A DNA stretch of 64,000 bases, taken from Candidatus Bathyarchaeia archaeon (GTDB taxonomy: Archaea; Thermoproteota; CALKCG01; B24). The notes below the pieces were generated by a model. That model did not search any database. It saw only the letters and a program-made list of their open reading frames with translations, and had not been told where the DNA came from. The stretch covers positions 1-64,000 of the forward strand of contig JAVZJD010000001.1 in assembly GCA_038870975.1 (NCBI GenBank). The letters are read 5' to 3'. Position numbers and translations under genes: made by a program. Below, piece by piece: positions 17,832 through 64,000 of the stretch (the first letter of the stretch is position 1; each line of letters opens with the position of its first letter).

Positions 17832-19073
17832 TTAACATACGGTGAATAATCCCTTAGCCAAGTTTAAACAGAACTCCTGAATGTGATCTAATTCATCCAT
17901 TATTATTGCCTCAATAGGTTCTTTGACGGTTTTAACTTTCAAACCTTTCTCTGGAACAACTTGAACCGCGGCGACTCTAGGTCTATTTATAGGCTCACCT
18001 ATGTGGCTTAGAAGCCACACGTATACTTCTTTAAGCCCTGAAACCTCTCTATGGATTCTATCGGCCATCTTATAGGTTAGTACATTGTATATCTTTCCTA
18101 TGTGAGAAACCGGGTTTTTACCTGCAGCAGCCTCACTACTGATAGGTCTATTCAGTGGTATTATACCGTTGACTCTATTCCCTCTACCTACTTGCCCCGA
18201 GTCTGAGTCGTCAGCACAAGTCCCTAGCACCGTAAGATATACGCCTTTAACACCCCTGCCTCTTCTATCTAGCGTGTTGAGAAATACCTTCACTTTTCCA
18301 TCTGTATACCTCTCAGAAACCCATCTATTTATTTCTTCGAGGACTTCCTCCTTATGTTTAAAGTAGGCATTTTCAGACTCTATAAACCTATCTACGAAGG
18401 CCATTGCTACCGTTAATTCGAGAGAATTCCCCCTTCTAAACCCCATCACTTTAACATCTTCACCAGTCTCAGGATGCTCACGTTTGAACTCTTTAGAGTT
18501 TAAAAACCTCTCCGTTTCTAAAACTATTCTCTCGGTAGTAGTCATAGGGGCATATCCAACGGCGGCTGAAGTATCATTAGCACCTAAAACCTTCGTCTTA
18601 CGCTCAAATATGTCTCTTAAAGCCTCAGAGCCCCTTTTAAGCTCGATTTGGTATTTTACGTGAAGATCTGGATTTACAAACCTAAGGTTTTCTCTAAACC
18701 ACTTCTTAGCCGTGTTTATAGCTATCTCATCAACAGGTATGTACTCTTCACCTACTTCATAGGTAGCTCTGTCTCCGAATATGAGCACCATAGCCTTCTT
18801 TAAAACCCCACCTCCAAACCTATGTTCAGCCTCACCAGCGGCTAGTAAGGCTTTATCTATATTATGGTGGGCAATTGTATTGAGGCGTTTGAGGTATTCG
18901 AGGCTTAAGTTTACTGAGACAGAATCCATAATAGCGTCGCATATATAGTCTGGATGCCCAAGCCCTCTGAGGGCTGAACGATACTAATACCGTTCAGCTT
19001 TCCTCTCAACTATCTCCACAGCCTGCTCAGAGACAGACTTACGATTAAGCTTTTCAATCGATATTATCGTCAT
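17832..19073 (-). CDS. mat: Archaeal S-adenosylmethionine synthetase, interrupted by a 33-nt putative intron (exon 1 19073-19000, exon 2 18966-17832; 402 aa spliced)
   Basis: MTIISIEKL...VEIVERK | GLGHPDYICD, ANDTS, GEDVKVMG, GQVGRGNRVNG, EAAAGKNPVSHIGKIYN; the ORF-track call 17832-18929 lacks the GHPD motif. Confidence 0.93.
18967..18999 (-). other. Putative bulge-helix-bulge(-like) mRNA intron in mat
   Basis: mRNA GAGG-AA^A-GCUGAACG(GUAUUAGUAU)CGUUCAGC-CCUC-AG^A-GGGCUU; in-frame UAG at 18984-18986; excision yields GAG AGG AAA GGG CUU = ERKGL. Confidence 0.85.
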
Positions 19074-19151: not shown

Positions 19152-19385
19152 CTAAGCCCTAAGCTGTATATACAACACGTTATTTCCCCTTATGAATATA
19201 TTCCCATAGTGAGCTGACGGATCGTTGCCTTTATACTCATCGGCATCTGTCAATATGAGGTTCATATAACTGTCACATGTCAACATTCTACCCACGTATT
19301 CGTAGTCATTCTTCAGTTTAATCCTTATTACGGAGTTTCTATAGCGCACCAATATGTTTAAGGGCTTCTTGCTAGGTTCTACCAT
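19152..19385 (-). CDS. Sm/Lsm family RNA-binding protein (SmAP)
   Basis: Sm1 GRMLTCDSYMNLIL and Sm2 IFIRGNNVLYI. Confidence 0.93.
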   Translation of the reverse strand: MVEPSKKPLNILVRYRNSVIRIKLKNDYEYVGRMLTCDSYMNLILTDADEYKGNDPSAHYGNIFIRGNNVLYIQLRA

Positions 19386-62222: not shown

Positions 62223-64000
62223 CTAACCCTTAACAACGGCTATTGGAACTAATCTAGCGACCTTCGTAGCTATACCCACTCTATGGCTTACTTCAGCAAC
62301 CAAGTCACATGGTTTGTATGCCCCAGAGGCTTCTTCGCTTAAAACGCTTAAACTTGCCGCTTCAACTACTATGCCTTGACGTTCCATTTCACGTTTAATC
62401 GCTTCTCCTCTCCAACGTTCTTTAGCTTTAGCTCTGGATAGTAGTCTTCCAGCTCCGTGGGCTGTAGAGCCGAATGTAAGCTCCATTGATTTAGGCGTCC
62501 CTACTAAAACCCAGCTTGAGTCTGCCATAGAGCCGGGTAGTAGCACTGGTTGACCTACGTTTCTATACTTGGCTGGAATTTCAGGTCTACCAGCTGGGAA
62601 AGCCCGAGTTGCACCCTTCCTATGTACGTAGACTTTTCTCTTGGTTCCCTTACTGTCCACTAAATGTTCTTCAAGCTTAGCTATGTTGTGTGCTACATCG
62701 TAAATTAAATGCATATCTAAATCCTCTGGGCTTCTCTTGAAAACGCTACTGAAGCTTTCTCTAACCCAGTGCATGATAGCTTGTCTATTAGCAAATGCAT
62801 AGTTTATGCCACATTTCATGGCTTTCACGTAGTCTTCACCTTCTCGGCTTGACGCTGGTACACAAGCTAGCTCTCTGTCTGGAACTCGAATCCCATATTT
62901 ATGCATGGCTCTCTCCATAACTCTAAGGTAGTCTGAACATATCTGATGACCGAACCCTCTAGAACCAGTGTGGATAAGTACCATTATCTGCCCCTCCTGT
63001 TCAATACCGAATACCTTCGCAACCTTAGGGTCCTCTATCCGATCTACGACGTCTATCTCCAAGAAGTGGTTACCAGACCCTAGAGTACCTATCTGAGGCT
63101 CTCCACGACTCCTAGCGGTGTTTGAGACTTTACTCGGGTCAGCACCCTCTATACTACCTCTCTCTTCACAGTACTCTAAATCTTCATCCCAGCCTAAACC
63201 GTGTTTAACAACCCATCCAGCACCTTCAACCATAAGCTCATCCAAATCTCTACTCGTAACCCTCAGGTCCTTCCTACGGCTTCCGAGACCACTTGGAACA
63301 TTCCTGAAAAGCGAAACGGTAAGCTGTTTTAAAACGGGCTTAACATCCTTCACCGTAAGATTTGTTTTAACGAGTCTCACTCCACAGTTATGAACAACTA
63401 TGCCGTTAGCTATGAAATTGTGCGCATCATGGTAAACTCCTATATCGTAGAACCTTGTGTAGCTAGGCTTGATGTATTCAACTCTTACAACTTTGTCGGA
63501 GACAAAACCGCCTTTATGGTAGAATTTTGATGCGAATTCTTCGAATGTTGGAAAGTCTTGGGCTATTCTGACGCCAGATGATGTCCCATATATGTTTCTT
63601 TCGACAAGTCTTCTGTTTATATGTTTCCCGGCAACTGCTTCATATGTTTTACTAATGCTTTCTGTACTCGCGTAGACTTCCATTGCCTTTTCAACCGCCT
63701 CCTCACGCATCTTTTTAACTGCATACTTCCTCTTCAGATATTCGTAAGCGATGGACGCCTGAGTCCTCTTCTTAGGTGAGTATTCGTAGCTAATGTAACC
63801 GAGGAAGTTTCTTATAGAGTCCTCATCTACTATTGAAAGCCTATATGTTATACGCCCTTCGAGAGATTTAACCTTGTAGATTATGCTTTTAACGTTAAAT
63901 TCGCGAAGAATTTTTGAAACTTCTTCGAGGAACAGTGTTAGATTGTCTTCGAGTTCTTTCTTCTTAGACTGAGTGAAATTTATCGGTAGTGGTGTATAAC
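62223..64000 (-). CDS. rtcB: RtcB RNA-splicing ligase, intein-containing, 5'-truncated by window edge
   Basis: CGVRL, GTLGSGNHFLE, HTGSRG, HNIAK, HRKGATRA, HGAGR; frame open to 64000. Confidence 0.95.
   Translation of the reverse strand, partial: YTPLPINFTQSKKKELEDNLTLFLEEVSKILREFNVKSIIYKVKSLEGRITYRLSIVDEDSIRNFLGYISYEYSPKKRTQASIAYEYLKRKYAVKKMREEAVEKAMEVYASTESISKTYEAVAGKHINRRLVERNIYGTSSGVRIAQDFPTFEEFASKFYHKGGFVSDKVVRVEYIKPSYTRFYDIGVYHDAHNFIANGIVVHNCGVRLVKTNLTVKDVKPVLKQLTVSLFRNVPSGLGSRRKDLRVTSRDLDELMVEGAGWVVKHGLGWDEDLEYCEERGSIEGADPSKVSNTARSRGEPQIGTLGSGNHFLEIDVVDRIEDPKVAKVFGIEQEGQIMVLIHTGSRGFGHQICSDYLRVMERAMHKYGIRVPDRELACVPASSREGEDYVKAMKCGINYAFANRQAIMHWVRESFSSVFKRSPEDLDMHLIYDVAHNIAKLEEHLVDSKGTKRKVYVHRKGATRAFPAGRPEIPAKYRNVGQPVLLPGSMADSSWVLVGTPKSMELTFGSTAHGAGRLLSRAKAKERWRGEAIKREMERQGIVVEAASLSVLSEEASGAYKPCDLVAEVSHRVGIATKVARLVPIAVVKG
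63387..64000 (-). mobile_element. Intein in RtcB (C-terminal part, with homing-endonuclease-like region)
   Basis: Block F/G FYDIGV..HNFIANGIVVHN followed by +1 Cys (CGVRL); upstream region resembles the end of a LAGLIDADG domain. Confidence 0.92.

Follow-up and report, generated by a model that had tools for sequence, protein, structure and literature searches.

A candidate tRNA-type mini-intron in the SAM synthetase gene of a Bathyarchaeia archaeon, with counterparts at the same codon in related genomes

The DNA considered here (the window) is a stretch of 64,000 nucleotides (nt) from a hot-spring archaeon of the Candidatus Bathyarchaeia (assembly GCA_038870975.1, contig JAVZJD010000001.1, positions 1 to 64,000), and it carries on its minus strand a broken mat gene, which encodes S-adenosylmethionine (SAM) synthetase (MAT). 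The gene starts at ATG 19073 with 24 codons ending in VEIVER, followed by a lysine, an insert, and then GLGHPDYICD. The insert is 33 nt long (18999-18967, minus strand), contains an in-frame TAG (18986-18984) and no open reading frame (ORF), is present in a single copy in the genome, and splits the Lys codon of ERKGLGHPD, a motif that is uninterrupted in the solved archaeal MATs. It separates exon 1 (19000-19073, minus strand; 24 codons plus the AA of the Lys25 codon) from exon 2 (17832-18966, minus strand), which holds the rest of the archaeal SAM synthetase including the catalytic His of GHPD and the stop codon. Exon 2 matches positions 25-394 of PF01941 (E 3.6e-153) and exon 1 alone matches positions 3-23, weakly (E 0.045). 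Deleting 18999-18967 restores ERKGLGHPD and gives a stop-free MAT of 402 amino acids (aa), with two deletion registers shifted downstream yielding the identical mRNA; the unspliced message stops after 29 residues. An earlier note on this DNA had described the start at 19073, the in-frame TAG, the 33-nt insert and, after cuts at AA^A and AG^A, the 402-aa product, all of which we find as it described them.

The insert is real DNA and no assembly error, since the whole stretch occurs without gaps, and with three differences, in single contigs from hot-spring runs of 2017 and 2024 that belong to different studies. An identical insert is present in a Joint Genome Institute contig (L159), and near-identical contigs from other studies may come from the same site as the source of the window. 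The earlier note had left both its presence in raw DNA reads and the copy number of mat to be checked; on the second point, the gene is the sole archaeal-type copy found in a 1.85-Mb genome that is 93% complete, and no bacterial-type MetK was found in that genome. Nor does the insert resemble a mobile palindromic repeat of the kind formed by miniature inverted-repeat transposable elements or repetitive extragenic palindromes, with no second match of more than 12 nt in the genome, and searches for group I or II introns, riboswitches and other Rfam RNAs gave no match for the 33 nt at E up to 5.

As RNA, the insert and its borders are predicted to form a compact structure related to the motif of archaeal tRNA introns called bulge-helix-bulge (BHB). 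Read in the direction of the transcript (all on the minus strand), an exonic GAGG (19002-19005) forms the 5' strand of a 4-bp helix H, an AAA bulge follows (18999-19001), a hairpin h' closes the intron side (18973-18998; arms 18998-18988 and 18983-18973 making 11 bp with one G-U, loop 18987-18984 of 4 nt), the intronic CCUC (18969-18972) completes helix H, and an AGA (18966-18968) is left unpaired. In each bulge, the tRNA-splicing endonuclease EndA cleaves behind the second base (PMC2738675). Under this rule the predicted cuts fall at 19000/18999 and 18967/18966, so that the last A of the AGA completes the Lys codon. The local fold has a z-score of -2.47 and was equalled in 4 of 200 shuffles. 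Folding thus reproduced the GAGG/CCUC helix, the AAA bulge and the 11-bp stem with its one G-U pair that the earlier note had proposed. We considered and rejected a canonical hBHBh' motif, as the two positions adjacent to the 3' bulge pair exon to exon in 0 of the 21 homologues described below; here the only exon-exon pairing is weak and lies on the far side of a 2x4 internal loop. The predicted motif is therefore a relaxed HBh' or bulge-helix-loop (BHL) form, as the earlier note held. The shape by itself was rejected as proof of an intron, with look-alikes too common: perfect HBh'-like hairpins number 23 in the genome, versus 2-8 in shuffled sequence. Because the hairpin alone is insufficient, the case rests on position and conservation, and an insert placed precisely where an invariant motif is interrupted, together with covarying conservation, is beyond chance.

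The conservation comes from the class to which the organism belongs (the Bathyarchaeota B24 group), in which Ca. Bathyarchaeota B24 and QZM_A2_bin_24 are its closest named relatives. Fourteen of its 17 genomes contain the relevant part of mat and are assessable, and an insert at exactly the same codon is found in 12 of them (families f1, f2 and f4), with two (f3) lacking it; the MATs of the three carrier families are only ~66% identical. Metagenomes supplied nine further distinct inserts, for a total of 21, ranging from 29 to 40 nt. In this set 16 inserts shift the frame and all five whose length is a multiple of three contain an in-frame stop, so that no unspliced copy can give MAT, and removal by the EndA rule restores the full-length protein in 21/21. 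Every homologue has GAG AGG AA at the exon border and AAA in the 5' bulge; CCUY occurs in 20 and CCCC in one; the third base of the 3' bulge is always A (AAA in 9, AGA in 7, ACA in 2, AUA in 2, GAA in 1). Synonymous sites at the border are held to what helix H requires: the GAG AGG AAA codons, present in all carriers, are found in only 4 of 156 intronless mat genes. Four pattern matches outside the class, from 401 Thermoproteota genomes, lacked the GAGG-AAA...CCUY geometry on reading and were dropped.

Within this fixed frame the arms and loops diverge among homologues while the pairing is kept. Helix H is paired in 83 of 84 cells and stem pairs 1-5 in 104 of 105, with the stem pairs alternating among G-C, A-U, U-A and C-G. 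An insert's own arms form 4.67 of 5 Watson-Crick pairs as against 2.46 for arms crossed between homologues (reached in 0/10,000 permutations), and in the alignment of the 12 genomes pairing holds in 99% of cells and 19 changes are double-sided, versus pairing in 35-51% for slid partners; kin sequences are not independent, so these pairing statistics are not probabilities, but the pair switches fall between families. Inserts at the same codon with compensatory stem changes, which the earlier note had suggested looking for in relatives, are thus a feature of 12 of the 14 genomes.

Both exons are under strong purifying selection. Within the genus, exon 1 has a nonsynonymous rate (dN) of 0-0.04 against a synonymous rate (dS) of 0.7-2.4, and exon 2 a dN of about 0.03-0.05 against a dS of 1.1-1.6, giving a dN/dS of about 0.03 for each. 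With dN so far below dS, exon 1 is evidently used as protein, and since an unjoined exon 1 would be useless, this selection supports joining. Public annotation, as the earlier note had predicted, misses this: records hold 365-aa products without the catalytic His and 386-aa products whose N-terminus is read from the intron (KYH38137.1 of B24 is an example of such an annotated product). The catalytic His of GHPD corresponds to His33 in TkMAT (PMC3853416).

Is the machinery for such a reaction present? As judged from its genes, the host has an EndA of two kinds of subunit, complete with catalytic triad and loop Lys, and the RNA ligase RtcB. Two EndA genes are present, one for an alpha subunit (C1:251571 region) and one for a second, beta subunit (C1:270239 region) that lacks the catalytic His. 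The alpha subunit is closest to the Sulfolobus and Aeropyrum enzymes, has Tyr123, His131 and Lys162, and places Lys40 opposite Lys44 of the Aeropyrum pernix (crenarchaeal) loop; this loop is present in all 16 EndA alpha subunits read from the class. The loop Lys of A. pernix EndA has been tied to cleavage of relaxed HBh' introns (PMC5829648), and a loop-bearing enzyme matters here because the mat motif lacks an exon-exon helix at its 3' site. The enzyme type found is the one the earlier note had suggested, a heteromeric alpha/beta EndA as in the TACK (Thaumarchaeota, Aigarchaeota, Crenarchaeota and Korarchaeota) archaea. The inferred ligase gene, rtcB, lies in part within the window (62226-64000, minus strand; PF01139, E 7e-149) and extends past its end. 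Its 986-aa frame includes an intein of ~480 aa with recognised ends, so that RNA splicing in this organism would depend on protein splicing.

The sequences establish the anatomy of the DNA, the restored frame, the covariation, the selection on both exons and the presence of the enzymes; folding in vivo, cleavage and ligation we infer. In the pre-mRNA, exonic GAGG would pair with intronic CCUC between the AAA bulge and the unpaired AGA, with the hairpin closing the intron side; (alpha-beta)2 EndA would cut after the second base of each bulge; and RtcB would ligate the exons, rebuilding the Lys25 codon and giving full-length MAT. We thus propose, with high confidence, that the mat insert is a small non-coding mRNA intron removed by EndA. 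Given that the unspliced message stops after 29 residues, splicing would be obligatory.

Support for this proposal comes from the rest of the genome. The cbf5 gene carries a 17-nt insert of hBH type (G000 C2:281656-281640, minus strand; L131), and in 17/17 genomes of the class (L333-L348) the catalytic Asp codon of cbf5 is interrupted behind its first base by an insert, which families f3 and f4 have in a longer form. The position is that of the published cbf5 intron (PMC2738675), and the insert therefore serves as an internal positive control; the class lies outside the two orders reported to have a cbf5 intron in 2009. An unbiased genome scan ranked pcm, mat, EF-2 and cbf5 first to fourth and also returned Lrp-type and mtnA-like genes, with an amrS insert coming from the first pass of the scan. 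The further BHB-like inserts are 19-31 nt long, and removing them by the same rule restores recognisable protein motifs, from which the gene names in part derive: EF-2 (G000 C1:642258-642288, plus), pcm (G000 C2:34559-34531, minus), amrS (G000 C1:783508-783537, plus), Lrp/AsnC-type (G000 C2:705064-705085, plus), mtnA-like (G000 C2:729926-729944, plus) and endoQ (G000 C1, about 609050, plus). The mat insert is thus one of at least seven in this genome, and the earlier note's suspicion of other BHB-flanked ORF breaks is borne out, cbf5 among them. A further candidate insert of 26 nt (G000 C2:619787-619762, minus strand; L135), of the form AA^A ... UA^A, joins two coding-like frames.

The established precedent is the intron that Desulfurococcales and Sulfolobales carry in their cbf5 pre-mRNA (Watanabe 2002; Yoshinari 2006; Yokobori 2009, PMC2738675), which the earlier note had cited in agreement with that literature. 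On every feature that can be tested in sequence, the mat insert fits an intron of this type. Both introns are short and ORF-less (16-44 bp in cbf5, 29-40 nt in mat), split a codon of an active-site motif, have relaxed BHB borders with cuts after the second bulge base that restore the frame, go with an (alpha-beta)2 EndA, vary in presence by lineage, and have been overlooked by annotation. They differ in that mat encodes an enzyme of central metabolism where cbf5 encodes one of RNA modification, and that the lineage is a different one; that the mat motif would owe its stability to the intron hairpin (HBh'), whereas the cbf5 insert of this genome uses an exon-exon helix (hBH); and that splicing has been demonstrated for the cbf5 intron, whereas for mat it is deduced from sequence. 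The BHB intron in the 5' untranslated region of HVO_1309 in Haloferax volcanii is likewise an mRNA segment cut by the tRNA-splicing endonuclease (PMC7714728; PMC10485636), but it lies in an untranslated leader, is served by an alpha2 enzyme and breaks no reading frame. Non-canonical tRNA introns of HBh' form, which an (alpha-beta)2 EndA with the loop cleaves, share both motif class and enzyme type with mat (PMC5829648), the mat substrate differing as an mRNA without a tRNA body. In its overall logic the proposed reaction also resembles the splicing of XBP1 mRNA by IRE1 and RtcB, in which a short insert is excised by a protein endonuclease and RtcB ligation restores the frame, although XBP1 uses another nuclease and motif and is stress-regulated.

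Several observations weigh against the proposed splicing of mat. No spliced read or contig was found, in a single RNA run that does not cover the junction: this metatranscriptome (X16; one run, small share) yielded two near-identical pieces of exon 2 and none listed across the junction, so that it counts neither for nor against splicing. No full-length or junction-spanning protein of the carrier lineages was seen among the best 120 matches, the listed cluster members and short fragments. Without an exon-exon helix, cleavage at the 3' site relies on relaxed specificity; RtcB is assumed to be the ligase for the mat exons; and four of the 21 homologues were retrieved with a pattern that requires AGGAAA, so that their exon bases are not independent evidence.

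What might the intron be doing in mat? As an extension of the intron proposal, it could be a SAM-responsive splicing switch in which methylation or SAM binding blocks cleavage, akin to the control of eukaryotic MAT2A or sams. The host gene does make SAM, and an Sm/Lsm gene (19152-19385, minus strand; PF01423, E 7.8e-20) shares its strand with mat and lies 78 nt upstream of it. We consider such a switch unlikely, as no ligand or methylation motif is conserved in the freely varying arms, loops and first two 3' bulge bases, the insert has no Rfam match, inserts built alike occur in unrelated genes of this genome, and family f3 is without the mat intron. Most likely the intron is a tolerated insert, kept through efficient removal, rather than a regulator.

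Two alternatives would dispense with an intron altogether. In translational bypassing, the ribosome would hop over the insert as in T4 gene 60, leaving the RNA uncut; a hairpin with a stop within a short gap does resemble a bypass element, and bypassing would likewise keep both exons under selection. Yet just 9 of the 21 homologues have, ahead of the Gly at which translation would resume, a codon that matches the Lys take-off codon, the stop is not adjacent to the take-off site and instead lies several codons downstream at a varying position, and bypassing accounts neither for the fixed geometry of 4-bp helix and 3-nt bulge nor for a cbf5 insert at a known spliced site, all of which makes it very improbable. 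Still less probable is a dead mat gene, or a shortened exon-2 protein made from an internal start as annotated: public records do list the 365-aa and 386-aa products and another mat may be unassembled in a genome that is 93% complete, but the first in-frame start after the stop (18929) lies beyond the catalytic His of GHPD, an exon-2-frame start exists inside the insert in only 4/21 homologues, the 21 copies show no other lesion and the low dN/dS given above in both exons, and each relative with any mat match has a single one.

The history of the mat intron was approached with quick trees. Nineteen carriers fall in one MAT clade together with f3 (SH-aLRT branch support 98-99), and placing f3 outside the carriers gives a tree that the approximately unbiased (AU) test does not reject (p 0.71). 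Loss of the intron in f3 was accordingly rejected as an established event, a branching of f3 before the gain fitting too. The other two carriers (L261 and L263) have 30-nt introns, their contigs being AT-rich and 1.7 and 2.4 kb long, and they group with intronless genes in a different clade. Their same-site introns (L261:286-357 in ERR14790940; L263:203-274 in ERR15087788) are on Aenigmarchaeota-like contigs, an assignment that comes from the clustering of mat with Aenigmarchaeota and does not firmly establish the hosts. L261 is 81% identical over 1.5 kb, including the downstream gene, to an intronless Ca. Aenigmatarchaeota metagenome-assembled genome (MAG), and the intron is absent from 30 other mat genes of that MAG's phylum. 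The two introns are alike, with compensatory changes, and the 5' arm of the L261 intron resembles those of genus g1. The AU test rejects a single clade comprising every carrier (p 3.5e-7, or 1e-7 with f3 added), which leaves transfer, a double gain at the same site, or an older origin with many losses. Independent gain, or an ancient shared origin followed by many losses, may account for the L261 and L263 introns. More tentatively, and in our judgement somewhat doubtful as a whole, the lineage would routinely use its tRNA machinery to splice core-gene mRNAs, and the mat mini-intron, itself ORF-less, would have crossed between distant archaeal groups; a tRNA-type intron would then be able to move from the mRNA of one phylum to that of another with no homing endonuclease involved. 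The sole EndA found in a 0.6-Mb Aenigmarchaeota MAG (L273; G401:C2) does not match the crenarchaeal loop pattern.

In the literature searched, cbf5 has been the only confirmed intron within an archaeal coding region for over twenty years. Papers of 2020 and 2023 list only cbf5 and the HVO_1309 leader intron (PMC7714728, PMC10485636), and the 2023 review puts the number of archaeal mRNAs spliced by EndA at two and anticipates others (PMC10485636); further mRNA introns in archaea have been predicted without confirmation (cited in PMC2738675). The earlier note knew of no described mat intron, and we likewise found neither a mat intron nor Bathyarchaeia mRNA introns in the searchable literature, which covers few subscription journals, most of them lying outside the search. 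If the mat message is spliced, the mechanism extends to ordinary metabolic genes, and in the public annotation of these genomes such genes are systematically wrong, their N-termini either absent or made up. An obligatory intron in SAM synthetase across a whole order would tie the supply of methyl donor to the tRNA-splicing enzymes. With the 21 natural variants, a set of substrates is at hand for the cleavage rules of relaxed motifs, and the patchy second occurrence in L261 and L263 makes the origin and spread of such introns testable.

Some minor observations concern the same genes and their surroundings. The Sm/Lsm neighbour of mat recurs in two other contigs (L262 and L265), a splicing role not being implied, and sigma-70 promoter and terminator scans, with models ill-suited to archaea, gave nothing beyond chance. 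Several tRNA genes of the genome are miscalled by ARAGORN, apparently through introns (G000 C1:795023-795139, C1:383175-383347, C1:222658-222758 and C1:629995-630103); in some, the introns are apparently multiple or at non-standard positions, and several anticodons are uncalled. In Bathyarchaeota bin1445 (L124; CP070791.1) the mat match ends at residue 310 of 402, possibly at another interruption. Finally, another mat gene (L018; G028:C44) has an 828-aa frame in which ~430 residues, probably an intein, interrupt the protein just after GHPD.
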